DNA from: a virus
Taxonomy: Duplodnaviria > Heunggongvirae > Uroviricota > Caudoviricetes
IMG/VR virus record: IMGVR_UViG_2541047706_000009
Length of the DNA: 38,923 bases
Direction: 5' to 3' (one strand)
The notes beneath the pieces are model-generated. The model saw nothing but the letters and a program-made list of their open reading frames with translations. It was not told where the DNA came from and searched no databases. Shown here one piece after another: positions 3,178-36,365 of the stretch; the stretch's first letter is position 1; the number at the start of each line of letters is the position of its first letter. A program made the translations under genes and the position numbers.

Positions 3178-5340
3178 TTAAGCGCTGAAACCGCCGACTC
3201 TAACTTTTAGCGTAGAGAGATCAACATTAACAGTTATGTTTAATACACCACTCCCCGCTGAAATAGAGAATAAGCGCCGTCCGCCTGACGTTCCGCCCCC
3301 CGCCGGTGGAGTGGTATCGAGTTCACCTGTGATCGATATTGAAATGGTACCCTCACGGTTAGCAACGAGTAGCTCTAAACATTCAGCCCAGGTGTTTTGT
3401 GCAGAAGACCAAGCATCGATAAGGATTCTCTGCGTCGTTCTGTTTGGTATTGCGATGGATTTGACTTCACCTGTATTTACCAGACCTTGAAAACGAGTTC
3501 CGTAATCTATCCAGCTAATGCTATAACCTGCATTTGCTGCAGGGTCTTGAGAGGTATACCAGGTCTTGGTTCTCACGCCAGTATGACCGATTGTCAGTAG
3601 AGGACGAGCAAATTGATCTCGATGAATGTATGCATTATCTCTGATCCCGTTGCTCTGCAGATCAATATCTGCAGCACGTGGATTAGGGAAAGTCGCTTTT
3701 CCACCAACATCAAAAACATCATAATGATTTGCAACTGCAGGAATCCATCCGTTCCTGTCCAGATTTCTAAAGAAATCCTCGAAAGCCAGCCAGTATGATT
3801 GCTGATGACCTAAAAGGTTAGGGTGAACAGTCTGTATTTCAGGGGTCCGGTCAAATAATGCCGTTTCACCATATTTAGCAACAGCATCAAACCAGTATTT
3901 TTCCACATCGATAAGCACGCAACCCATTTCTACAGCGATTTTCCTGATCGCATCGTTTCCTCGAAGGAAGCGGACACCTGCTTGAATATTTACCCCATTC
4001 CACTCAAACGTGACATTTGAGTTTGCGGCAGATGGTATAATGTTATTATCAGAGACTGGGGCCGGAGAAGATGAAGGCCATATTTGAGAAATTCCAGCCG
4101 GCATGCTCCAGCTATATTCAGAAATATTCGGATGAGGTGTGGTTGTTAGCACAACATCCCCGCCGGCCTCCCTGACTAAATTAATAGCATTTCGAAGGCG
4201 CTGTTTAAATCCGTTTTCATTGAATGTTTGCCCGGCATTATATTGTGCGGTAGGAAAATCATTCATTCCATATATAAACAAAGCAATATCAGGATATATT
4301 CCTTCAGCAACAACTTCAGGCCATTGGTTAACAATAAAATTATTTATCGTTGAACCATTAACAGATTTGTTTGTGAAGTTAATGGGATAAATACGCTGCT
4401 TATTTAGCGTATCGTTCATATACTCAAAAAATTTAGCAACTGGTGCCTGTGTTGCTGGATCAGGAAGCGTAGCACCAACCCCAACAGAAGAACCAAACCC
4501 ATAGAGTCGAAATAAGTTCTGATAGCCAGAAACCCCATGCCGATAAGCTGTTAATTTATTGACGAAATTTGGGAAAAGGGCCTGTGATGATCCAGACGCA
4601 GCACGAATAGAAGCCTCTACCGTTCTTCCTGTTTCCGTAGCAACTAAGCCAGCACCGTCTTTTGATGCTAGCTTGATTGCCAAATCTGCCGTTTCAGTTT
4701 GCCCTGCAATCGGAACAGGATCCCCCTGGTCATTGAATCCAATCAGCATATTTGCTCTGGCTCGTACAGATGCCATGATTCCTACCTGACTTTCCGGAAC
4801 TCGCAAAGTTCGCTGGAAAAGACCATCTGCATGATGAGTGCTGTCATTGTCTCCCGAGTCCACATAAGATTTTGTTGCTGCATCCTGTGCCTGTGACGGG
4901 TCACGCAGATTACGAATGCGGTTGTTGAGTGCGTCGTAATAGTTCGCGATGAACGACGGCTTACGCAGCGCCAGGCGGAGAAAGCTGAAGCACTGCTGGA
5001 TAAGCATGGTCAGCTTGTCGAACGCATCCTCATGTACCTCTGCGAAAAATTTCCCCTGGTTACGCAGATCAGTCTCCTGGGTAACAGGCAAGTCACGTGA
5101 GATAGAGATTTGCCATCCGTTGGCCAGAGGTGACATCAACACAATGCTCCCACCTGAATAGCTTCCCGCCCCGGTAACGGAGTAATCGGTATCCAGAGTA
5201 AGTACCGTAATATTTTCGTTAAGGTCAGCAACCTGTACTGTCAGATCTGACTTCTTGAAAATACGAAACTTGTACGGGAAAGATGTGGTAACGCCGTTAC
5301 CAGTGTATTCGTTGTGGTCAACTTCGGTTGAGACCGTCAT
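3178..5340 (-). CDS. Tailspike/tail fibre with conserved N-terminal particle-binding domain and SGNH-hydrolase-like block
   Basis: 720 aa. N-terminus TVSTEVDHNEYTGNGVTTSFPYKFRIFKKSDLTVQV resembles the virion-attachment domain of podovirus tail fibres/spikes. Central region has GxND (IYGMNDF) and HPN motifs of SGNH/GDSL esterases. GGAG RBS. Confidence 0.7.
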   Translation of the reverse strand: MTVSTEVDHNEYTGNGVTTSFPYKFRIFKKSDLTVQVADLNENITVLTLDTDYSVTGAGSYSGGSIVLMSPLANGWQISISRDLPVTQETDLRNQGKFFAEVHEDAFDKLTMLIQQCFSFLRLALRKPSFIANYYDALNNRIRNLRDPSQAQDAATKSYVDSGDNDSTHHADGLFQRTLRVPESQVGIMASVRARANMLIGFNDQGDPVPIAGQTETADLAIKLASKDGAGLVATETGRTVEASIRAASGSSQALFPNFVNKLTAYRHGVSGYQNLFRLYGFGSSVGVGATLPDPATQAPVAKFFEYMNDTLNKQRIYPINFTNKSVNGSTINNFIVNQWPEVVAEGIYPDIALFIYGMNDFPTAQYNAGQTFNENGFKQRLRNAINLVREAGGDVVLTTTPHPNISEYSWSMPAGISQIWPSSSPAPVSDNNIIPSAANSNVTFEWNGVNIQAGVRFLRGNDAIRKIAVEMGCVLIDVEKYWFDAVAKYGETALFDRTPEIQTVHPNLLGHQQSYWLAFEDFFRNLDRNGWIPAVANHYDVFDVGGKATFPNPRAADIDLQSNGIRDNAYIHRDQFARPLLTIGHTGVRTKTWYTSQDPAANAGYSISWIDYGTRFQGLVNTGEVKSIAIPNRTTQRILIDAWSSAQNTWAECLELLVANREGTISISITGELDTTPPAGGGTSGGRRLFSISAGSGVLNITVNVDLSTLKVRVGGFSA

Positions 5341-5443: not shown

Positions 5444-5460
5444 ATTACCTTTATGGTAAT
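5444..5460. promoter_or_regulatory. 17-bp palindromic operator-like site ATTACC-tttat-GGTAAT
   Basis: Perfect inverted repeat with 5-bp spacer in the divergent tailspike / candidate-antirepressor intergenic region; same motif as the sites flanking the repressor gene. Confidence 0.55.
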
Positions 5461-5496: not shown

Positions 5497-5516
5497 TACT
5501 GTATAAATATACAGTT
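5497..5516. promoter_or_regulatory. LexA (SOS) box
   Basis: TACTGTATAAATATACAGTT matches the consensus TACTGTATATATATACAGTA at 18/20 with perfect CTGT-N8-ACAG; sits 20 nt upstream of the ATG at 5536. Confidence 0.7.
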
Positions 5517-5535
5517 ATTGCATGGAGAAGATAAG

Positions 5536-5793
5536 ATGCAGCGGTATCACTATCCACTGGAAGACGGATTTACCGAAAGGATTCACACGCCGGGAGGCGT
5601 CAGGTCACTGGTGGAGGGATCGCACTTGATGAAATTACTCCGGGATCTCGATAAGGATGGATTTAATGTCGATGGCCCACTTGCCGAACTGACTGCACTG
5701 ATTAACTACGTCACCAGCTCACAGATGTCTATGCAGGATCTGCAAACACATCTCGACTATTGTGCCGAACAATTACGAAAACAAACCACATAA
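5536..5793 (+). CDS. Small SOS-regulated protein, candidate antirepressor
   Basis: 85 aa (MQRYHYPLEDGF..). GGAGA RBS 7 nt upstream; promoter region carries a LexA box and an operator-like palindrome. Function inferred from regulatory context only. Confidence 0.45.
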   Translation: MQRYHYPLEDGFTERIHTPGGVRSLVEGSHLMKLLRDLDKDGFNVDGPLAELTALINYVTSSQMSMQDLQTHLDYCAEQLRKQTT

Positions 5794-5798
5794 AGAAA

Positions 5799-5816
5799 AG
5801 GCCGCGAAAGCGGCCT
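5799..5816 (-). terminator. Hairpin terminator at the end of the late operon
   Basis: aggccgc-GAAA-gcggcct stem-loop, followed on the minus strand by a T-rich tract (cttttcttta). Confidence 0.5.
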
Positions 5817-5828
5817 GTGACATGTCAC
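5817..5828. repeat. Perfect 12-bp palindrome GTGACATGTCAC (copy 1)
   Basis: Identical 12-mer recurs at 26015-26026; this copy overlaps the stop of the 5825-6121 gene and abuts the terminator hairpin. Confidence 0.6.
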
Positions 5829-6316: not shown

Positions 6317-8791
6317 TTATTGCGGAGTGACATCCTGAGGTCGCCACCAGTATGTCTGGTTAAACTCTTTCTTCGAACGTTGCTCCATTTTACGCAAATA
6401 GCCTGGTGAAAAATACTCCTGCATCTGGTTAAAGATCATGTGATCAAGAGCTGCCTTCAAGTACCAGAGATTCGCACCTGGCATCAGCCCTTTCCCAAGT
6501 TTCACCAGATCACCACCAGTCTGCTCGTTCTTCCCTTCCACAGCATTTAATGGTATGCCCTGAGCTATCTTCACTACGTCATCAACCAGGCCAGCTACCG
6601 GGCCAAGCATCGACGCCAGCGCGCCGCTTCCGTACCTAGTGTGATCTGACAATAAAAAGTCACCGTAAAGGCCAAGACCACCACCTTTCAGTAGAGCACC
6701 AAGCCAAAATTTAGCAGCATCTTCTCCTGTCATCTCGCGAGGATTACGACCAGACGCAAGGTCGTTAAGTTGCTGCGACAAAGCGCCAAGAATGGTCGTA
6801 CTGGCAATAAACGTCGCAATATATGCCGCACGCCCACCAGCAGACGGCATACCCATAGCGCGTGACCAGTGACGCATAACCACCGAGATAGGGAACGATT
6901 TAAACAGGAAAACACTTCTCGTTAATTCACCTTTCCATGTTCCACGCTGAATACCAGAACCGGTTATCAGTTGCTCACGTGCTCCCGGTGTAATAACAGC
7001 CATATCAACTTCTTCAGTTACGGCACCGAGCAGTTTACGCATTGCCTCAAATTTCACGCGTTCAGGCTCACCAAGATGTTTAACTGCTGAATCAGGGATA
7101 CGCATAATGCTTTCCGGTGTCAGCATCGTATTATTACCGTTCCCCCAGTCCTCCTGTTGCGCCAGCTTCCATACGCTCCAGTCTGTGTCAGTAATCCCTT
7201 TGCTTTTCAGGATACGAAAATCAGAGTCATCGAGGCTACGAAGGTCTGGTGTCCGTGACACTACTTCTCCCAGGCTTCCCATCATGGTTACGCCATAGGC
7301 GCGCTTGTGCGCATCTGACCATGCTGTAAGCCCACTGGCACGCATTACCGCCGTTGCTGCCCAACGAGACACTGACGGCCCCATATTATCCATCGCCCAG
7401 CGGTTAACGCTGCCAAGTAGAGATTCCATTGCCAGACCAGCGCGGCGCGCCCGCGCAAGTTCTGTACGGTTCGTTGGGTCCATAGCTTCAAGCTGGTTGC
7501 GGAATAACTGGTTCATTGGAAGGTTGGTCACCTTCGCAGACAGATACATGGTTCCAAGATCAGAGAACGATGATAGCAACGCGGATCCGAGTCTGCTGGC
7601 AACCAGCCAGTTGCGGATATTGTCAGACCATCGCGCGATGTGCGGATTCGCTACAGGCTGTGTCTTTCCGGAAATAAAGTTGTACAGATTCTCTGTGTTG
7701 TTCGCCAGCCGCTCGACTTTACCGGTTTTACTCGGGTTAGCTGTTGCCGTTTCTGCCTTCACCTGATCAAGAAGAGAGCGGAAAACATGATCGGGGTTTG
7801 GGCCATATGTTTCCACCAGTGCAATATCTTTACTGATACCTTCCAGGTGACCGACCATGATTTCCCATAGAGAGCGATCGCCATAAAGTTGCTGATATTG
7901 CAGATATGAATCTGCATCTTTGAAATGTATCTGTCGTGATGCATTACCACGGTTAGCACGTGCGCCGGAAATTCGCATGCCGGTATCAGTAAGCTTATTC
8001 AGCCCACCAGTGGCGATTGTGTTATAAGCTTCTCCAAGAAATGCAGACAACTCGGCATCGTTCATCAGTTGTCCATCGGCTCGGATATAATATTTGCGAT
8101 CCAGCTTACCTATAACATCGCTAACCCACTTATCCTTTGATACCGCCCCAACCTTTTCCATAGAATGATGTTGAGGGATCCCCCAGTTTTCGAGATAGCC
8201 AATGTCCCCACCAGCATCATTAAACCGGCGGCGCAGTAGCTCTGTCACTTCTCTCCACGCCTTAGCACCTTTTCTTGCTTTAGCATTGCCAGTATTTTGC
8301 CCCCGCATTTCATATACCAGATCACGTACGCCCGCTTCATCTTCAAACAGACCAAAAAAGCGAGGATCAACTGCTTCGAATGCCTCCTGCAATTGACTCA
8401 ATGCATAATCACGGGTGGCTTTTGTTCTGGATTCAACAGAGAGGAAATTCGATTTACCGTCTGCATTAAAAGCAATAGTACGGTTAAGAGCGCCAAGTTT
8501 CCCATCAGCCCCTTGATAGCTATTGATAAATTTATCCAATCTCTGACGTGCGGCTATAGTGAGGGTCACACGACGTTTCTTTAATGCCGCTTCTCGCTGT
8601 AATTCTTCAGATGCCAATTGTGCTGCACGATATAGCCGCTCTGATTCGGAAAGTTGTCTCCACGACATCGGGTCATCACGAGCAATGGAGCGCATATTTC
8701 GATAAATGCGGTCTTCAATGTTCTGTATTTCTCGCGCCGTTAACGTGCGCTGCGCCGCCTGCTGGACCGCTTGTATACATTCCTGTCTCAT
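6317..8791 (-). CDS. Large internal virion / DNA-ejection protein
   Basis: 824-aa ORF in the block of large ORFs between the tubular proteins and the tailspike, the position of podovirus ejection proteins; no specific motif recognised. Confidence 0.55.
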   Translation of the reverse strand: MRQECIQAVQQAAQRTLTAREIQNIEDRIYRNMRSIARDDPMSWRQLSESERLYRAAQLASEELQREAALKKRRVTLTIAARQRLDKFINSYQGADGKLGALNRTIAFNADGKSNFLSVESRTKATRDYALSQLQEAFEAVDPRFFGLFEDEAGVRDLVYEMRGQNTGNAKARKGAKAWREVTELLRRRFNDAGGDIGYLENWGIPQHHSMEKVGAVSKDKWVSDVIGKLDRKYYIRADGQLMNDAELSAFLGEAYNTIATGGLNKLTDTGMRISGARANRGNASRQIHFKDADSYLQYQQLYGDRSLWEIMVGHLEGISKDIALVETYGPNPDHVFRSLLDQVKAETATANPSKTGKVERLANNTENLYNFISGKTQPVANPHIARWSDNIRNWLVASRLGSALLSSFSDLGTMYLSAKVTNLPMNQLFRNQLEAMDPTNRTELARARRAGLAMESLLGSVNRWAMDNMGPSVSRWAATAVMRASGLTAWSDAHKRAYGVTMMGSLGEVVSRTPDLRSLDDSDFRILKSKGITDTDWSVWKLAQQEDWGNGNNTMLTPESIMRIPDSAVKHLGEPERVKFEAMRKLLGAVTEEVDMAVITPGAREQLITGSGIQRGTWKGELTRSVFLFKSFPISVVMRHWSRAMGMPSAGGRAAYIATFIASTTILGALSQQLNDLASGRNPREMTGEDAAKFWLGALLKGGGLGLYGDFLLSDHTRYGSGALASMLGPVAGLVDDVVKIAQGIPLNAVEGKNEQTGGDLVKLGKGLMPGANLWYLKAALDHMIFNQMQEYFSPGYLRKMEQRSKKEFNQTYWWRPQDVTPQ

Positions 8792-22363: not shown

Positions 22364-22401
22364 TTGACATTTAACGCACGAATTATTACCTTTCAGGTAA
22401 C
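22364..22401 (+). promoter_or_regulatory. Promoter-like TTGACA with operator-like palindrome ATTACC-tttca-GGTAAC
   Basis: TTGACA at 22364-22369; palindrome at 22385-22401 overlaps the -10 position. Faces the noncoding region and tRNA. Confidence 0.4.
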
Positions 22402-22721: not shown

Positions 22722-22798
22722 GTGGCATTAGCTCAGTTGGACAGAGCAACCGCCTTCTAAGCGGTTGGTCGCAGGTTCGAATCCTGCATGCCACGCCA
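22722..22798 (+). tRNA. tRNA-Arg (anticodon UCU), phage-encoded
   Basis: Cloverleaf readable by eye: acceptor GTGGCAT/ATGCCAC, D-arm GCTCAGTTGGACAGAGC, anticodon stem ACCGC/GCGGT with loop CTTCTAA, T-arm GCAGGTTCGAATCCTGC, discriminator G and encoded CCA. Confidence 0.85.
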
Positions 22799-22884: not shown

Positions 22885-22960
22885 CAGCAGGACGCCATTG
22901 CGATGACTTCATGCTGTAAACCCGTACAGCCACGGAAGGCAGAACTCATTGCTTCCAGTT

Positions 22961-22987
22961 CGCCCGGTTCGCCGGGCATTTTTTTGC
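22961..22987 (+). terminator. Rho-independent terminator
   Basis: cgcccgg-ttcg-ccgggc GC-rich hairpin followed by TTTTTTT. Confidence 0.65.
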
Positions 22988-23000
22988 TTGATGACCGCAA

Positions 23001-23017
23001 ATTACCTTAAAGGTATA
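23001..23017. promoter_or_regulatory. Operator-like palindrome ATTACC-ttaaa-GGTATA overlapping a TATAAT element
   Basis: Half-site ATTACC plus imperfect right half; ggTATAATc lies 4 nt before the moron ATG at 23021. Confidence 0.4.
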
Positions 23018-23020
23018 ATC

Positions 23021-23839
23021 ATGAAAAACTTCAAGGTAATTAGCATGTTTGAATCGTTCAAAGAGCTGTTTTTATCTACTGCCAATACTGCCGTGAATCG
23101 AGCCAAAAACCCTGTGCTTGGTGCTTTTGTTATGTCCTGGTGCGCCTTCAACTGGAAATCAATTCTTTATCTATTTTTTAGCAAATCAAACATAATAGAT
23201 AAAATTTCATATATCTCAGATAACAGCACATGGAAAACTGTTATGTTTTATCCATGCTTATCTGTAATTGCTATCTGCTGCCTATTACCATGGGTAAACA
23301 ATATCATTAACGTATGGCAAGCAAAGCCTCTTGATAATAATGACTCAATCGAAAATCACCTGAAGGCAAGAAAAATCCAGCGTGAAACAAGGCTGCAGAG
23401 GTTATTGGCTAAAAAAGATGTTACATACGACAAAGTTAAGACTGGCGCGGAAAAAGACATCCAAGAGATGAAAGAAGAGATTATTCGTTCAAAGAATAGT
23501 ATGGGGGAATTGACTGCCGAGTTGAAAGCTAAAGATGACGAATTGAGATCCGCCAGTGCTCAGTTAGCAGCTCTAAATCATTCATTAAAAGAGATATCGG
23601 AAACTCTTGGAAGAATGAATGAGGCATATAAGACCCTCCAAAATGATTTCGACGAATACAAACTCAAATACCCTGAAAAATCTCAAATAAAAAGCCTTGC
23701 ACTTGGCAACGGCCAAACAATTAGCAACTTTTTGGAGCAACACAACTTATCCGGATTAAAATCTGGTAAGCCAAACGTTTTTAATAACTTTGGTGTTCTA
23801 TCTGGATTATCAGGTTTCGAGGATAAAAATAAAGACTAA
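23021..23839 (+). CDS. AT-rich moron: membrane-anchored coiled-coil protein
   Basis: 273 aa from ATG 23021 (ORF-track start 22949 trimmed; 22991 also possible). Two N-terminal TM segments then a K/E-rich coiled coil. Visibly lower GC than flanking genes and opposite in strand to the late operon. Confidence 0.6.
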   Translation: MKNFKVISMFESFKELFLSTANTAVNRAKNPVLGAFVMSWCAFNWKSILYLFFSKSNIIDKISYISDNSTWKTVMFYPCLSVIAICCLLPWVNNIINVWQAKPLDNNDSIENHLKARKIQRETRLQRLLAKKDVTYDKVKTGAEKDIQEMKEEIIRSKNSMGELTAELKAKDDELRSASAQLAALNHSLKEISETLGRMNEAYKTLQNDFDEYKLKYPEKSQIKSLALGNGQTISNFLEQHNLSGLKSGKPNVFNNFGVLSGLSGFEDKNKD

Positions 23840-25311
23840 GCATATGGATCGTACTCGGTAAGCGCCTTGCCTTGCTGGTTCTGCTGCCCGGGAAGTCGCA
23901 GGCGCTTTGACACCGGGAAAGCAAACGTCAGCAGTAGCGCATCGCCTTTACCAGGCGAACGCCCAAGTCGTTCTTTGATATCTTCCTTCGGTTCGATAAC
24001 GATTTTACCGTCCACGCGAACTTTGTACTCTGCCGCCGACAGATCGTCCGCTGTTTCCTGGTCATCCAGCATCCCGCCCAACCTCAGCCATGTCTTGCAT
24101 GAGTTGAACATCTCCCCACGCTTGTTAAGCATCTGCGGGTCAGTGGACGCACCGCCGAACGGAACAAGTTGCCATGTACGTCCCCAGCCATCACCGATTG
24201 ACTTCAGACCAGTTCCGTAACCGAAGTCGATGAACACTGCGTCAGCCTGGTACTGGTCTTCAAAGTCAGCGATACGCTTCGCCATAATCAGATCGTCGGT
24301 GGTCTTGTTACCAGTCCATAGCACCTTACTGTGCAGCCCCTGCCGCAGGTATATCACAGCGTCATCAACGCCGGAGTATGCCGGGTCAACGCCGATTATC
24401 ACCGGAGCATGTGCAACCTGCGCAGCGGTTACCACCCGTTTCATTGCCTCGTCAGTAAGGCCGGTAGGGATAAACTGCAATTCAGATGCATCCGGGAATA
24501 TGCCGCGCACACGGATTTTAACGAAGTCGCTGTCTTCCCCGTAGTCATCAACCCATTTCTGCAACTGCTGTTTGTTAGTGCCTTCCACCGTCCGGCTGTC
24601 AATCTGCGCAGTTTTCCAGCGGTGTTTATATTTGCGGAAACATTCGCGGAAACGCCCGGTGTTACGTGTAGGGTTTCCGAATGCCACCCAGATAATCTCA
24701 GTGTCTTCGTCCGTCAGCGCACCCTCTGCTACCTCCCACACCAGATCGGCAATGTTGGATGCTTCGTCGAATACCACGATGATGCGTTTGCGCTCGTTGT
24801 GTAGTCCGGCGAATGCCTCAGTGTTGTGCTCAGACCAGGGGATTGCGTCAGCTCGCCACCGCTTGTCGTGCCCAGGGTCATTGCTGTACATCGCGGTAGC
24901 GGTACAGGTAAACCAGTCTTTCGTGATAGCAAGGTTCGACCACTTGATAATTTCCGGCCAGGTCTTCGTTCGTAGCTGGTTGTCGGTGTTGGCGGTCACC
25001 ACGACCTTACAATCCTCGCAAGTGGACATGCCCCAGTTGATCAGCATTGAGATGAATGCGGATTTACCAATACCGTGACCAGAAGCACGTGCCAGCATAA
25101 GCGGCTGATATCGCGTCTCTGGATTCTGCAGGTGATCACGTATCTCTCGGAACGCATCGGCCTGCCACTGACGTGGACCGGTGGCATGTGCCAGTTCAGT
25201 ACCCTCTTCCCCCCACGGGAACGCATAGAGGGCATAGCCAAGCGGATCGTGAGTGAACCCTGCAATATCCTCGATTAACTGCTCTTCAGGAGATAACGCT
25301 GTATCTGTCAC
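23836..25311 (-). CDS. Terminase large subunit
   Basis: 491 aa; Walker-A-like ASGHGIGKS near the N-terminus and acidic nuclease-like C-terminal half; start overlaps the small-subunit stop. Confidence 0.8.
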   Translation of the reverse strand: MTDTALSPEEQLIEDIAGFTHDPLGYALYAFPWGEEGTELAHATGPRQWQADAFREIRDHLQNPETRYQPLMLARASGHGIGKSAFISMLINWGMSTCEDCKVVVTANTDNQLRTKTWPEIIKWSNLAITKDWFTCTATAMYSNDPGHDKRWRADAIPWSEHNTEAFAGLHNERKRIIVVFDEASNIADLVWEVAEGALTDEDTEIIWVAFGNPTRNTGRFRECFRKYKHRWKTAQIDSRTVEGTNKQQLQKWVDDYGEDSDFVKIRVRGIFPDASELQFIPTGLTDEAMKRVVTAAQVAHAPVIIGVDPAYSGVDDAVIYLRQGLHSKVLWTGNKTTDDLIMAKRIADFEDQYQADAVFIDFGYGTGLKSIGDGWGRTWQLVPFGGASTDPQMLNKRGEMFNSCKTWLRLGGMLDDQETADDLSAAEYKVRVDGKIVIEPKEDIKERLGRSPGKGDALLLTFAFPVSKRLRLPGQQNQQGKALTEYDPYA

Positions 25312-25904
25312 TGATTGCCATCCTGACGTTCTTTCAGTCTCTTCCTGGCTGCCGCTATGCGATCAGCAATTGTCACATTCACATTAACATCCAGGCGTTC
25401 TTTGAATGCGTTGACGTCGACGTGCTTACCAATCAGTTCGAGGTTCTTCACCTTGTCAGGCCATTTAATTTTTTTGAGGATTGTCTCTATCGAATCCTCG
25501 TTCATGTTCATGATGGTCGATGACAGATCAAAGCCACTAAGCGTAGTGCGCCAGATTTTCGGCCACTCACGGATTGGTTTAAGGCTCCCATCGTCGTTGA
25601 GGATATCGATCACGTCCATCTGGTCGATCTCCACCAGGCGCATGAGAACGTAATCAGCACTGACGCGCATTCGTTTGTTGCGCTCCTCCATCAACTCGGC
25701 AATCCGTTTTTGAATGCGTTCATCGCGCATCATGACACTGGCTTTAACTGCCGCTGTATTTGGGGAGAATCCTGCGTTAATCGCTGCCTGAGTCTGGTTT
25801 TCAGGCGTTTTGATGTATGACTGGCAATAAGCCTCCTGCATTGCTGTTAGTGGCTTAAATTGCGTTGATTTGCGTTTATAGGTTTTAGGTTCAGCAGGCA
25901 TCAT
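25308..25904 (-). CDS. Terminase small subunit
   Basis: About 198 aa from ATGATG at 25904 with GGTGG RBS (ORF-track start 25982 trimmed because a terminator lies inside the extension). Confidence 0.6.
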   Translation of the reverse strand: MMPAEPKTYKRKSTQFKPLTAMQEAYCQSYIKTPENQTQAAINAGFSPNTAAVKASVMMRDERIQKRIAELMEERNKRMRVSADYVLMRLVEIDQMDVIDILNDDGSLKPIREWPKIWRTTLSGFDLSSTIMNMNEDSIETILKKIKWPDKVKNLELIGKHVDVNAFKERLDVNVNVTIADRIAAARKRLKERQDGNQ

Positions 25905-25911
25905 AACCACC

Positions 25912-25943
25912 GTGGTAATAGTTACCGTTGTGGTAATAGTACC
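25912..25943. repeat. Tandem repeat GTGGTAATAGT(T)ACC x2 in the terminase leader
   Basis: Two adjacent copies separated by gtt; each holds GGTAAT and TACC half-site-like elements. Confidence 0.4.
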
Positions 25944-25946
25944 ATG

Positions 25947-25974
25947 CAAAATAAAGCCGCCATAGTTGGCGGCA
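25947..25974 (-). terminator. Rho-independent terminator upstream of the late operon
   Basis: gccgcc-aactat-ggcggc hairpin followed on the minus strand by tttatttt; about 45 nt upstream of the terminase small-subunit start. Confidence 0.6.
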
Positions 25975-26014
25975 GTATTCAAAACACATCAAATTCATCA
26001 TGCATAATCTACTC

Positions 26015-26026
26015 GTGACATGTCAC
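26015..26026. repeat. Perfect 12-bp palindrome GTGACATGTCAC (copy 2)
   Basis: Identical to the copy at 5817-5828; lies at the stop of the zinc-finger gene, about 40 nt upstream of the late-operon terminator. Confidence 0.6.
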
Positions 26027-26364
26027 ACTATTAATTTCGTTTCATGCCAGCCTTTAGTCACCCAGCATTGCGAGTCACCATTGCACGGGCATGAATTAAC
26101 TGGAACTCTCTCGCCGCACTTACCGCAACGTTTTCTGCTGATCGATTTTATACGCCCGCGCACCCGGGCATCATCCTGGCGGATCAGCAGCGCGATGTAC
26201 TCGGCCATTTCATAGGGATCTCGACCAGGGCGCCGGGCGGCGCAGTTACGCTCCAGCATTTCAATTTCCTGAGCATCAAGCACAATCTCCAGCTTACGCA
26301 CACCAGATGCAGCTTGTCTGGCTCTCTGAGCGGCTTTGCGCTCTGCTGCTGATTTAGCCATCAA
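26023..26364 (-). CDS. Small zinc-finger protein, candidate late-gene regulator
   Basis: 113 aa, basic N-terminus, C-terminal CxxC..CxC cluster (RKRCGKCGERVPVNSCPCNGDSQC); last gene before the late operon. Confidence 0.4.
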   Translation of the reverse strand: MMAKSAAERKAAQRARQAASGVRKLEIVLDAQEIEMLERNCAARRPGRDPYEMAEYIALLIRQDDARVRGRIKSISRKRCGKCGERVPVNSCPCNGDSQCWVTKGWHETKLIV

Positions 26365-26635
26365 TATTTACCTTTATCGCGTATACCTTTACCGGTTTAT
26401 CGCCGAAGTGGGGATGTGTGATTGTCTTGATTTCATATCCGTCATACGGGACGTCAATTCTACGACTGGAGTCGTCGCGCTTCGGATATCCCTTTGTGAT
26501 AATCAGTCGGTCATAATCCCTGAACATAATTCGCTTATTCCAGTAGTCATTACACAGGCGATACTCTTCCGTTTTCTCTCCGCGAATGATGGCATCGAAG
26601 TATTCACCTTTAACGGCTAGTTGCAGGTTAGCCAC
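26354..26635 (-). CDS. ASCH-domain protein
   Basis: About 93 aa from GTG with AGGAGG RBS; has the GxKxxExR signature (GEKTEEYR) of ASCH domains. Confidence 0.5.
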   Translation of the reverse strand: MANLQLAVKGEYFDAIIRGEKTEEYRLCNDYWNKRIMFRDYDRLIITKGYPKRDDSSRRIDVPYDGYEIKTITHPHFGDKPVKVYAIKVNIDG

Positions 26636-27203
26636 GATTAACCTCCTGCTTCGGTGCTGCTGGCATTTCACGCCAGTGCGTAACTGAGTGCGGATCCGGA
26701 TATTCGGTGCCATCATCCCAGCGATTACCATTCCACATTGCAGACCACATCTCACCGTCTTCATACATGACCATTACCGGAATTAACTTATCCGGCATTC
26801 GCTCACTACAGCTTATCCAACCATCCGGAGTTCCCGGAGTTGGTCCATCGAATTCGGGCATGTCAGGACCTTTTCTGATAGCTTTAGCCAGCTCCAGCGG
26901 GTCATCGTAAAGCCAGTCGCCAGTTTGTGGGTGATTTGCTTCTGCCAGTTGCGCCGCCCATTCAAGGCCGTCTTTGTGACCTTGCAGATAGCCCAGCGGC
27001 AACTCATCACGATTACTTACATGTTCGGCACCCCGAAGCATGGCGGCGCGGAGTTTCTGTATCTCCCGTGCCATTATTGCGTCCTGACGAGGAGTGAACA
27101 TATCACCTGCAATAATTCTGTTTAGTTCCTCGTCAGTGAACTCATAATCATCAGGAACATTGTGAACCTCAGCATAAAGAGGCTTTTTGGTAGAAATGGT
27201 CAT
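26628..27203 (-). CDS. DUF551-like phage protein
   Basis: 191 aa; C-terminal region DGWISCSERMPD..VTHWREMPAAP matches the DUF551 pattern (GWISV..RLP...THWMPLP). Confidence 0.5.
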   Translation of the reverse strand: MTISTKKPLYAEVHNVPDDYEFTDEELNRIIAGDMFTPRQDAIMAREIQKLRAAMLRGAEHVSNRDELPLGYLQGHKDGLEWAAQLAEANHPQTGDWLYDDPLELAKAIRKGPDMPEFDGPTPGTPDGWISCSERMPDKLIPVMVMYEDGEMWSAMWNGNRWDDGTEYPDPHSVTHWREMPAAPKQEVNRG

Positions 27204-27904
27204 CGTAAAACACCCTCCGCACTTACCAGTCCGTTTCGCAAAAGATAATCCATCGCCCTATCTGGTAATTTGCAATCAGGTTTTGCTTTTTTCAGTTGGC
27301 TGACCAATTGTTTAACCAGCACTGTTAATTCGATAACCTGGTAGCGCGGCAATGGTGAATTATCGGATTTGCCCTGACTTTCTGCGCTGCATGAATGCCC
27401 TTCCAGCCATGCCAATGCTTGTCGCATGAAATACGCAATATGTTTGCCGTGGTAATCGTCTTCATCGATGTGAAAAGCGATACTGCGGATGTATTCTATT
27501 GCGTTTTCAATAGCCTCCGGCCTTATCGGCGCTGACATATTTTGATTTTGGAGTGCCAAGACGCGGCTGGCATCCTCAACATCTTTAACTGCATCTGCGC
27601 AGTAGTTATAGCGATTGCACTCCACTAACTTCTGCTTGAGATTTTCAATTGCTTGCGCGACATCAGCCTGCAATTCCCGAACTGGCGGAGTGGCATATAA
27701 CGGCACCCACTTTGGTGCTTTATCCCCGACCGAACGCTGATACCAGTCACCCGGTTTGTATTCATAAAACTCACCAACAGGCTCTGCTTCCAGCAAGGCT
27801 AACGCTATTTCATAAGCTCGGCGCTCAATATTGTCTCGCACGTCCAGGCTGCCGATGCGCTCTTTGATTTCTTTAATCAGTTCTTTGTCGGTGAAAGTGG
27901 TCAT
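27200..27904 (-). CDS. Hypothetical nin-region protein
   Basis: About 234 aa from ATG 27904 with AAGGAG RBS (ORF-track extension to 27985 trimmed). Confidence 0.45.
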   Translation of the reverse strand: MTTFTDKELIKEIKERIGSLDVRDNIERRAYEIALALLEAEPVGEFYEYKPGDWYQRSVGDKAPKWVPLYATPPVRELQADVAQAIENLKQKLVECNRYNYCADAVKDVEDASRVLALQNQNMSAPIRPEAIENAIEYIRSIAFHIDEDDYHGKHIAYFMRQALAWLEGHSCSAESQGKSDNSPLPRYQVIELTVLVKQLVSQLKKAKPDCKLPDRAMDYLLRNGLVSAEGVLR

Positions 27905-30018: not shown

Positions 30019-30035
30019 TTTACCTCTGAGGTAAT
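30019..30035. promoter_or_regulatory. Operator-like palindrome TTTACC-tctga-GGTAAT
   Basis: Lies 3 nt upstream of the DUF1064 start codon and includes its RBS. Confidence 0.5.
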
Positions 30036-30080: not shown

Positions 30081-30097
30081 ATTACCTAACAGGTAAT
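30081..30097. promoter_or_regulatory. Operator-like palindrome ATTACC-taaca-GGTAAT
   Basis: Perfect site between the P-like gene stop and the DUF1064 gene. Confidence 0.5.
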
Positions 30098-32387: not shown

Positions 32388-32452
32388 TTCACCCATAAGG
32401 TAACAAAAATCAAGGATAGTTACCTGTGGGGTGCATTTACCTGTTGGGTAAT
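32388..32452. promoter_or_regulatory. OR-like region with three operator-like sites and divergent promoters
   Basis: TTCACC-cataa-GGTAAC (32388-32404), GTTACC-tgtgg-GGTGCA (32419-32435, weaker) and TTTACC-tgttg-GGTAAT (32436-32452). On the minus strand, a TTGATT -35 and GAATAT -10 flank the first site. Confidence 0.6.
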
Positions 32453-32506
32453 ATTGCTTTAAATTGAATCATCTACTGATTCATATATGAGGCGATTTTC
32501 CAGAAA

Positions 32507-33091
32507 ATGAAAAGTATCCAGGACGTCCGCAGGCAAAATCTCAACGACTTGATCGACCGTGAATGCAATGGTGTTCAGACGCGGATGGCAGAAAAACTTG
32601 GAACTCAGGCAAATCTGGTAAACCGCTGGGCTCTTGGCAAGAAGGTTATCGGCGACCAGGTTGCACGAAAAATTGAAGCTGCCGCCAATAAACCCCGTAA
32701 CTGGCTTGATATTGATCGTTCGCTTTCTCAGGAGGGTTTTCAGCCTGTCGGCCCGAGCGATATAGGTCAGCTGGCGGCTCACAACCTGGAACGCTGGATG
32801 AGCGAAAGCCGCGACCTTTCAACACAGGGAAAACTTCACCGCGCATCCGGCGTCGCCCAGGTGACAATCAGCCGCCTGTTAAACAATGAGGTCAGCGTTT
32901 CCATTTCCACCCTGGAGAATGTTGCATCCGCATTCGGGCGTCACGGCTATGAATTACTGATTCACCCGCACGACCCTGCGACCATCAACTATGATCGCTC
33001 GCGCTACGCATTGTTACCCGAAACCGAGAAAGCAAAGATCGAAAGTTACATTGAATTTGTCATCAACCAGAACGAAAAAAACAAACAATAA
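32507..33091 (+). CDS. Putative prophage repressor, tandem HTH, no S24 peptidase domain
   Basis: 194 aa with two helix-turn-helix-like segments (..VQTRMAEKLGTQANLVNRWALGKK.. and ..ASGVAQVTISRLLNNEVSVSISTLENVASAFG..); no Ala-Gly/Ser-Lys autocleavage signature. Flanked by operator clusters and followed by a terminator. Confidence 0.55.
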   Translation: MKSIQDVRRQNLNDLIDRECNGVQTRMAEKLGTQANLVNRWALGKKVIGDQVARKIEAAANKPRNWLDIDRSLSQEGFQPVGPSDIGQLAAHNLERWMSESRDLSTQGKLHRASGVAQVTISRLLNNEVSVSISTLENVASAFGRHGYELLIHPHDPATINYDRSRYALLPETEKAKIESYIEFVINQNEKNKQ

Positions 33092-33147: not shown

Positions 33148-33226
33148 ATTACCTAACGGGTAATTTTTTTAACTCATATCTATTGACATCAAACCATATA
33201 CGCATAATTATTACCTCAACGGTAAC
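33148..33226 (+). promoter_or_regulatory. OL/pL-like region with two operator-like sites and TTGACA
   Basis: ATTACC-taacg-GGTAAT (33148-33164), TTGACA at 33183-33188, ATTACC-tcaac-GGTAAC (33210-33226). Confidence 0.55.
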
Positions 33227-35956: not shown

Positions 35957-36113
35957 GTGCGCTGCTAAGGCACTGGAGCAAATGGTCAGGATGGTACTTA
36001 TTCCTGGCCTCTGTTTCAGCATGGCTTTATCTGCTGGCATTAATTTTCAGAGAGGGTTGGATTAAGTGAGAAAGTTAAGCCGACTTGAAAAATATCACAT
36101 GAACAAGGTTTCA

Positions 36114-36365
36114 ATGCGCAGCCCTTCAAAGATTGTCGCCGTTACTCCTGCGGCGATAGAGATCGAAAAACGCGCGATTGAAAGAGAGAAAAAAGGGCAA
36201 TTCCGCATTGCCGCTCACCTTTGGCTTCAGTGTATGGATGTTGCTTCTGGTGATGTTGAACGTGCAAGGATCGCGGTTCGCAGGGACCAATGTATCACAA
36301 AAGGTAACGGCCTTCGCCGTGGCGACTATAGCGGCATAGGATGTTGTGGGGTGGTTTATGACTAA
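36114..36365 (+). CDS. PerC-family-like small regulator
   Basis: About 83 aa from ATG 36114 with AAGG RBS (upstream starts at 36066/36099 possible); ..FRIAAHLWLQCMDVASGDVERARIAVRRDQC.. resembles the PerC pattern. Confidence 0.4.
   Translation: MRSPSKIVAVTPAAIEIEKRAIEREKKGQFRIAAHLWLQCMDVASGDVERARIAVRRDQCITKGNGLRRGDYSGIGCCGVVYD

Follow-up and report, generated by a model that had tools for sequence, protein, structure and literature searches.

The DNA analysed in this study (38,923 nucleotides; IMG/VR virus record IMGVR_UViG_2541047706_000009; hereafter the window) is, judged by its sequence, a Uetakevirus genome of the phiV10/epsilon15 type. A megablast comparison of the region 25200-27300 revealed 95-99% identity to phiV10-/epsilon15-type podoviruses (Uetakevirus) over the gene of the terminase small subunit (terS) and the gene preceding it. 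The gene order of the window is that of phiV10 and epsilon15 read on the opposite strand, and for this reason the features described here lie on the minus strand. Our subject is the junction at which the delayed-early transcription unit would meet the packaging (late) unit. On the minus strand, the DUF1064-type gene (30016-29672) is followed by ea22-like genes, a methyltransferase-like open reading frame (ORF), DUF551 and ASCH genes and a gene for a small basic protein with a cysteine cluster; then come a palindrome, an intrinsic terminator, terS and terL (Table 1).

The small protein and its probable palindromic site

The gene that ends the delayed-early unit encodes a protein of 113 aa, if translation begins at a TTG codon, or more likely of 112 aa from the ATG at 26361, as in its homologues. 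A preliminary description of this locus had reported a basic protein with a CxxC...CxC cluster immediately upstream of the terminator, and this is well founded: the protein has a pI of 9.6 (23 K+R versus 14 D+E residues) and cysteines at positions 41, 80, 83, 92, 94 and 100, which provide the CxxC...CxC cluster plus C100. A full-length profile match (residues 2-112, E 5.6e-55) places it in PHROG 536, whose members include gp49 of epsilon15, gp55 of phiV10 and gp46 of N15; no Pfam family was matched. The protein has 702 close homologues in enterobacterial prophages, and an exhaustive homologue search returned only 161 clusters at 50% identity. The hosts seen for the family were all Enterobacterales, Vibrio or Aeromonas. 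Across an alignment of 50 diverse members, R9, C80 and C83 are invariant and R14, E55, L60, P88, G96 and C100 nearly so. The family consensus consists of a basic helix (A-x-R-K-x-x-Q-R-x-R), a short strand and two helices, followed by C-x-K-C-G-x-x-L-P...G-D-x-x-C-W.

The AlphaFold2 model of the protein is confident (pLDDT 87.5), and profile comparisons gave weak matches to YbfE-type ribbon-helix-helix (RHH) proteins, RHH_5, RepB and RHH_1. The predicted architecture comprises (i) an N-terminal basic helix, (ii) a core with the strand, helix, helix arrangement of the RHH (CopG/Arc/MetJ) fold and (iii) a C-terminal cysteine-rich knuckle, which presumably binds zinc. The C-terminal half shows weak similarity (E 0.07) to the RNA-polymerase-binding TraR/YbiI zinc fingers. 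Among viral models, a structure search matched only a fragment from the PHROG 536 family itself. Pfam and PHROG scans of the small protein and of the ORFs of the early region detected no member of the Q, N or Ogr families, in agreement with the earlier remark that nothing here resembles lambda Q; a tblastn search of the window for Ogr, with the P2 Ogr sequence as the query, gave no match. The remote-homology search that had been proposed for this protein returned PHROG 536 and weak RHH profiles, and neither Q nor Ogr. It is very probable that the protein, which the delayed-early unit would produce last, is a sequence-specific nucleic-acid-binding regulator.

A perfect 12-bp palindrome, GTGACATGTCAC (palindrome A), lies between the end of this gene, whose stop codon it includes, and the terminator. 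A second perfect copy in the window (palindrome C) lies where the structural operon ends; an intrinsic terminator (stem 5816-5799) comes directly after it and faces a convergent antirepressor-like gene. By our estimate, 39 kb of sequence should contain any given 12-mer about 0.002 times. The general form of the motif, GTGACnnGTCAC, has ten specified bases and is expected about once per million positions, or about 0.04 times per genome by our estimate. A third copy of this form (GTGACGGGTCAC) is located in the tailspike gene, near the end of the strongly conserved N-terminal domain and before the variable part. The epsilon15 and phiV10 genomes lack a copy at this place, and the tailspike copy could be a chance occurrence or a mark of a module boundary.

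Perfect copies of the palindrome number three in epsilon15, three in SPN1S and two in phiV10, which carries in addition a copy with a single mismatch at the stop codon of its family gene. Three positions are conserved in Uetakeviruses: (i) the end of the RHH-zinc gene, (ii) a place beside the terminator after terL and (iii) the end of the structural operon. At each site in four Uetakeviruses, the palindrome is followed, after 0-41 nt, by a terminator in the direction of the ending gene. This order was read by eye at two sites where a strict automated check did not confirm the terminator, namely after terL in epsilon15 (an imperfect hairpin) and at the gene-end copy of SPN1S (at the end of the record). 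The two palindromes of the window precede terminators, one of which is located upstream of terS and the other upstream of the tailspike and lysis block.

The association of the site with the family gene extends to other phages and constitutes the strongest result of the analysis. GTGACnnGTCAC overlaps or abuts the stop codon of the family gene in at least nine phage lineages. It begins 1 nt before the stop codon in 55 of the 65 non-redundant loci of the Uetakevirus, N15 and Yersinia groups, and the same register is found in one Pantoea prophage and in two metagenomic lineages, whose proteins are ~30-35% identical to that of the window. Other registers also occur: ZF40, Chlobot and a third metagenomic lineage have the motif 2-9 nt past the stop codon, a second Pantoea prophage has it 15 nt ahead of this codon, and in Vibrio phages it is ~230 nt downstream of the gene; two Aeromonas phages contain no motif within 500 nt of the family gene. 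The gene-linked motif of a Yersinia P2-like phage is the only copy in its genome (33 kb). The carriers of this gene-plus-site cassette are temperate phages of the podo-, myo- and siphovirus types that infect Enterobacterales, Vibrio and Aeromonas. The half-sites remain invariant while the two central bases and the proteins themselves diverge, as is characteristic of symmetric DNA sites recognised by dimers. The anatomy of the junction, its conservation and the tight linkage of gene and site are firm, and it is likely, on the strength of this pattern, that the small protein binds the palindrome.

Both the gene and the terminator had been annotated previously, and the family already carries the label 'transcriptional regulator', which appears to be a prediction. 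The new elements are the cognate site with its stop-codon register, its half-sites resembling matS, its association with terminators and the Q-like position of the cassette in other lineages. Within the literature covered, to which the papers on the epsilon15 genome and on the SPC32H antirepressor did not belong, we found no publication on the palindrome or on the function of gp49, gp55 and gp46, nor an account of how late transcription is timed in phages of the epsilon15/phiV10 type. These phages serve as reporter and typing phages for Salmonella and E. coli O157. The analysis turns a 'zinc-finger gene before terS' into objects that can be tested: a 12-bp site, a predicted RHH protein, a predicted repressor-controlled promoter and specific terminators.

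The terminator and the predicted terS promoter

The stem of the terminator (GCCGCCA/ACTA/TGGCGGC, 25973-25956) is followed by TTTATTTTG down to 25947; the element therefore consists of a 7-bp stem with six G-C pairs, a 4-nt loop and then TTTATTTT. Its 36-nt RNA folds with -15.8 kcal/mol (z = -4.4), and none of 200 shuffled sequences was as stable. Being a G+C-rich hairpin that runs directly into a U tract where a transcription unit ends, it is by sequence an intrinsic terminator. A scan of the region found 11 terminator-like sites versus 8.4 expected, i.e. no overall enrichment, and the case for this terminator therefore rests on its strength and conservation. At the equivalent position, a hairpin with a T tract is present in Salmonella-type relatives (GCCGCCGACTATGGCGGC) and in Cronobacter prophages (AACCGCC-TCTAC-GGCGGTT), in the latter with different outer stem pairs and a different loop. 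A rho-independent terminator is also annotated at this place in the database records of phiV10 and epsilon15. The good terminator noticed earlier about 45 nt before terS is thereby confirmed.

The most likely start codon of terS is the ATG at 25901, which aligns with the epsilon15 start and lies 45 nt past the T tract; a ribosome-binding sequence, GGTGG, is present at 25911-25907. Directly upstream of, and fused to, the first of two adjacent repressor operators (O1) is a predicted extended -10 element, TGgTACTAT. O1 and the second operator (O2) overlap the predicted transcription start and the leader of terS. The 26 distinct versions in an alignment of the terminator-terS intergenic region represent three haplotypes, those of E. 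coli, Salmonella and Cronobacter. Although an 18-nt indel and numerous substitutions set the haplotypes apart, TGnTAnTAT is kept in all of them. It varies only at the two 'n' positions (TACTAT, TATTAT or TAGTAT after TGG, TGA or TGT), which are those best tolerated by the sigma-70 extended -10.

The operator consensus, ATTACC-N5-GGTAAT, is represented by 13 operator-like sites in the window versus 0.95 expected, and none of 100 shuffles reached 13. These sites span 2729-33226 (e.g. 5444-5460, 22385-22401, 30019-30035, 30081-30097, 32436-32452, 33148-33164 and 33210-33226); besides the immunity region, they occupy places past the replication genes and in front of the terS, portal and tailspike genes. 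The epsilon15 record labels equivalent motifs as repressor binding sites in the immunity region and before the terS, portal and tailspike genes. The occurrence of operators over the whole genome, in front of the early, packaging, portal and tailspike blocks, points to direct silencing of many promoters by the prophage repressor, rather than to a single master switch.

A -10 hexamer running into ATTACC is also found at a pL-like promoter near 33180-33226 (consensus TTGACA) and at the junction that follows the P-like gene (30097-30019). A terminator precedes each of the two, so that 25947-25973 appears to be one of a series in which a terminator is followed by a repressor-controlled promoter; such junctions would cut the genome into units. 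The extended -10 element and the two operators past the terminator indicate that the packaging operon probably has its own repressor-controlled promoter. No terminator was found between these elements and terS. Two proposals of the preliminary description need revision in this light. The terminator had been assigned the position of tR', and it precedes the probable terS promoter as one of several terminator-operator-promoter junctions; late expression had been expected to need antitermination, and the conserved extended -10 with its two operators, with no further terminator before terS, argues against this.

Candidate roles of the protein at unit boundaries

Most likely the small protein is a boundary regulator rather than a demonstrated late switch. 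We see about an even chance that the whole reading holds, i.e. that the protein acts at palindromes adjacent to terminators, that the packaging operon relies on its own repressor-controlled promoter, and that read-through is slightly favoured over block; the activity of the promoter and the direction of the effect are, like the binding, what we infer. The junction would be built of four elements: (i) a last early gene, encoding the small RHH protein with its basic N-terminal helix and presumably zinc-binding knuckle, (ii) the probable DNA target of this protein, GTGACATGTCAC, overlapping its own stop codon, (iii) a strong intrinsic terminator, which would halt polymerases coming from the early unit, and (iv) past the terminator, an extended -10 promoter under two repressor operators, which would transcribe terS. 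In a lysogen, the repressor would silence the packaging operon directly. Once the repressor is removed, the operon would fire from its own promoter, and antitermination would not be strictly needed. The RHH-zinc protein, presumably as a dimer, would occupy the palindromes upstream of the terminators that close the units (26015 and 5817) and, as an accessory factor, modulate the behaviour of polymerase at these boundaries, read-through into the next late block being slightly preferred over a roadblock or insulator function. The gene-plus-site cassette is found in many kinds of phages, and it may control the passage of transcription into their late genes.

Several observations weigh against this proposal. 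In phiV10, epsilon15 and SPN1S, the terminator that comes after the terL-side palindrome serves only a moron in reverse orientation, and this speaks more for a roadblock than for read-through. The predicted terS promoter has no -35 element and for this reason is not called by a consensus promoter scanner, and the putative operators are assigned from database annotation, enrichment and position. In Vibrio phage K233, the palindrome variant GTGACACGTCAC (8220-8231, with an extra GTCAC half-site just before it) lies 19 nt upstream of the terS ATG with no terminator nearby, a placement explained well by none of the current models. The site could also act as an RNA hairpin, given that the N-terminal helix is arginine-rich. 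Finally, the cassette occupies the place of lambda Q in three other lineages, which favours a stronger, obligatory role, and no recognisable Q was found in the L158 early operon, the one early operon that was fully inspected.

The three lineages are represented by metagenomic contigs L152, by metagenomic contigs L155/L158 and by Vibrio phages K233, PhiPS02 and L141. In these, the family gene and the palindrome are followed, after 50-110 nt, by a good, near-consensus sigma-70 promoter, then by a structured leader with one or two strong terminators behind it, and finally by holin/endolysin/spanin genes or terS. They argue for the view that the protein is an obligatory late switch, a functional analogue of Q that makes polymerases resistant to the terminator or activates a late promoter, so that the late genes are off without it; we regard this as a possible if unlikely role. 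The likeness to the Q/qut/pR'/tR' system of lambda is evident also in the window. The regulator gene is the last early gene, hence its product would be a natural timer; the cognate site comes right after its stop codon, so that gene and site would be inherited together; a strong terminator stands before the late genes, and the order of gene, site, terminator and late gene resembles that of Q, qut and tR'. No other antiterminator was found in the window by the Pfam and PHROG scans, the palindromes at 26015 and 5817 precede their terminators in the direction of terS and of the tailspike and lysis genes, and the weak TraR/YbiI similarity would suit a factor of this kind.

The predicted independent promoter downstream of the terminator argues the other way, as does its order: the terminator of the window precedes the probable late promoter, whereas tR' of lambda follows its own. 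Q sites lie within the promoter, whereas no conserved promoter or pause element overlaps the palindrome, and no conserved promoter separates it from the terminator; elsewhere the palindrome is placed 92-139 bp upstream of the predicted late start (our count). A candidate promoter at the palindrome itself was considered and dropped as not conserved: GTGACA-18-CATGAT (minus strand, 26026-25997), which scores 9/12, has a counterpart in epsilon15 (GTGACA-17-TAAATT), no -10 in the Cronobacter type and none at the 5817 copy in the sense direction. The protein is unrelated to the Q families in sequence and predicted fold. Moreover, N15 carries the cassette (gene 46) together with its own Q, which has a separate late promoter and terminator. 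The Yersinia P2-like phage vB_YenM_31.17 (NC_070918.1) carries the cassette after gpA and, in addition, a true Ogr (32431-32643, plus strand; tblastn 3e-27 versus the P2 sequence), and no palindrome is present at its late promoters. The record of this phage annotates, in place of Ogr, a 92-aa hypothetical protein on the opposite strand. In Pantoea prophages, the family gene ends the early-left operon, next to and convergent with int. Convergent genes flank the Pantoea site and two of the three Uetakevirus sites, an arrangement that would suit a symmetric roadblock. The coexistence with Q and Ogr implies that the conserved job of the family is not to be 'the late switch', and a universal role of PHROG 536 as such a switch is not supported by these genomes.

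Ogr of P2, Delta of P4 and B of 186 are small, basic, zinc-binding phage proteins tied to late gene control; the small protein differs in having no Pfam Ogr_Delta match, and in the Yersinia phage the two kinds of protein are encoded separately. Of the earlier suggestion that the zinc-finger protein functions as a Q- or Ogr-type factor, the part that stands is a very probable nucleic-acid-binding regulator found in the place of Q in three lineages; the likeness to Q or Ogr in sequence or fold does not.

A broader form of the idea is that the RHH-zinc protein and its matS-like palindrome constitute a late-gene gate of a new kind, which has no relation to Q, N, Ogr or Mor/C, and a portable cassette that replaces Q in several temperate lineages. 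The factor would be recruited at the site overlapping its own stop codon and would pass polymerases through the terminators separating the early, packaging, structural and lysis blocks. We hold this to be rather unlikely. If the cassette does gate terminators, it would solve the problem of the early-late switch in a new way.

Another reading, which we rate as quite improbable, is non-transcriptional. The protein would be an organiser of DNA comparable to MatP, bridging or anchoring phage DNA or marking module borders for recombination, replication or packaging, and the proximity to terminators would only reflect the shared use of scarce non-coding DNA at module ends. The matS consensus is GTGACRNYGTCAC (PMC6907758). 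The half-sites of the palindrome (GTGAC and GTCAC) are identical to those of matS, and MatP is itself an RHH DNA-binding protein whose RHH domain is preceded by a basic helix. The sites are located at module borders, namely between early and late genes, past terL, where the structural block ends and near the conserved/variable junction of the tailspike gene; some genomes contain a single site, and all hosts seen belong to orders that possess MatP. The phage site, however, has 12 bp with a 2-bp centre (GTGAC-NN-GTCAC), compared with 13 bp and a 3-bp centre in matS, and the 13-bp version is absent from the window. There is no detectable sequence homology to MatP: an hhalign comparison of the PHROG 536 family profile was not significant (probability 0.2), and MatP was absent among the matched Pfam families. 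The phage protein has a cysteine knuckle, and no counterpart of the four-helix bundle and coiled coil of MatP is expected in a protein this small. With 1-3 palindromes per phage genome, placed at gene ends, the distribution differs as well. The order of palindrome and then terminator is consistent over four phages and three positions, and several lineages have the cassette immediately ahead of late control regions. A MatP-like organiser would be a new idea for phages, and the identity with the matS half-sites deserves attention under either reading.

About as improbable is an RNA element, in which the transcribed hairpin (Y)GUGA-CNNG-UCAC(R) would be bound by the arginine-rich N-terminal helix with N/nut-like antitermination or translational control of the next gene as the outcome: every site is in transcribed sequence, RNAfold predicts a small hairpin, the invariant R9 and nearly invariant R14 both lie in the basic helix, and in N15, Chlobot and a Vibrio phage the ribosome-binding site of the following gene adjoins the palindrome or is 7 nt away from it, but the hairpin has only 4-5 bp, its stem is invariant and its loop free (the opposite of known arginine-rich-motif hairpins), no compensatory covariation was seen and RHH proteins and MatP bind duplex DNA.

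Two further systems were compared with the proposed boundary regulator. The repressor-operator-antirepressor system of SPC32H, SPN1S and epsilon15 has homologous parts in the window (a repressor, ATTACC-N5-GGTAAT operators and a candidate antirepressor gene); it explains the operators at the terS junction, but not the RHH-zinc protein or the palindromes. Arc and Mnt of P22 and the CopG/MetJ repressors share the RHH fold predicted here, whereas the sites of the PHROG 536 family are in transcribed 3' gene ends and not in promoters, and the family has an extra N-terminal basic helix with invariant arginines and a C-terminal cysteine cluster.

Further features of the window and of related phages

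Table 1. Position of the features discussed in the text (strand and remarks as far as available)
Feature	Position	Strand	Remarks
Gene for 112/113-aa basic protein	26023..26364	minus	last delayed-early gene; predicted RHH core and Cys cluster
Palindrome A, GTGACATGTCAC	26015..26026	symmetric	perfect, 12 bp; contains TGA stop of small-protein gene
Intrinsic terminator ending delayed-early unit	25947..25973	minus	stem 25973-25956, T tract to 25947
Predicted extended -10 of terS promoter, TGgTACTAT	25936..25944	minus	predicted transcription start near 25929
Two adjacent putative repressor operators	O1 25937-25921, O2 25919-25903		consensus ATTACC-N5-GGTAAT
terS	25308..25901	minus	terminase small subunit; first gene of packaging/late block; Pfam Terminase_2, E 1e-29
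terL	25311-23836	minus	
Palindrome C	5817-5828; with terminator 5799..5828	minus	contains stop of 98-aa membrane-protein gene
Third GTGACnnGTCAC copy, GTGACGGGTCAC	4893..4904		within tailspike gene, codons R-D-P-S-Q, ~aa 145-149
O-like and P-like replication genes	31755-30134	minus	
DUF1064-type gene	30016-29672	minus	matches Holliday-junction-resolvase PHROG 190
Prophage repressor gene	32507..33091	plus	PHROG transcriptional regulator/repressor families; PDB 5d50_A (SPC32H repressor), E 4.9e-41

Some additional relationships of the cassette were considered and rejected. The distances between the centre of the palindrome and the downstream start (-72.5, -73.5, -91.5, -92.5 and -111.5, our count) looked periodic, as if set by helical phasing, until the Vibrio lineage, at ~-138.5, broke the pattern. 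A pac or terminase-recognition role was rejected in view of the location of the cassette far from the terminase genes in N15-type and P2-type phages. A partner gene was also sought, and no neighbour is conserved across the lineages.

In the three lineages in which the cassette takes the place of Q, the late leader starts with a conserved inverted repeat, GTGGTG...CGCCAC or TTGTGG...CCACAA, at ~+8 to +40 (our count). The repeat precedes the terminator(s) (L155, 3484-3660; L152, 649-740; Vibrio phage K233, 5649-5775) and may be a second regulatory element. Pectobacterium phage ZF40 contains three perfect copies of GTGACATGTCAC, at 5125, 7622 and 14944. One of them follows the family gene gp22; the others are inside the early genes gp08 and cII-like gp12, flanking the cI/cro region.

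The candidate antirepressor gene of the window encodes a protein of 91 aa (5518-5793, plus strand) with a match to PHROG 450 and a weak match to an anti-repressor family; the gene and the end of the structural operon are convergent. Just ahead of the gene is a near-perfect LexA box, CTGTATATTTATACAG (5499-5514), and the gene product is probably the SOS-controlled antirepressor known from SPN1S and SPC32H. The early-left operon contains a PerC-like 'transcriptional activator' gene (36066-36365, plus strand; PHROG 868, E 6e-62), which corresponds to gp34 of phiV10 and gp31 of epsilon15. The encoded protein is another candidate for positive control of the late genes.

Between terL and the portal region, the window carries a tRNA-Arg(TCT) gene (22722-22798, plus strand) and an ORF of 296 aa (22949-23839, plus strand; PHROG 4780), which converges head-on with terL with a 4-nt overlap. 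The corresponding region of phiV10 and epsilon15, after terL, is occupied by a palindrome and a terminator. A promoter-like site of the 296-aa ORF (ATGACC-17-TATAAT, 22991-23019) includes the operator-like sequence ATTACCTTAAAGGTATA (23001-23017), and for this reason the inserted moron may also be controlled by the repressor.

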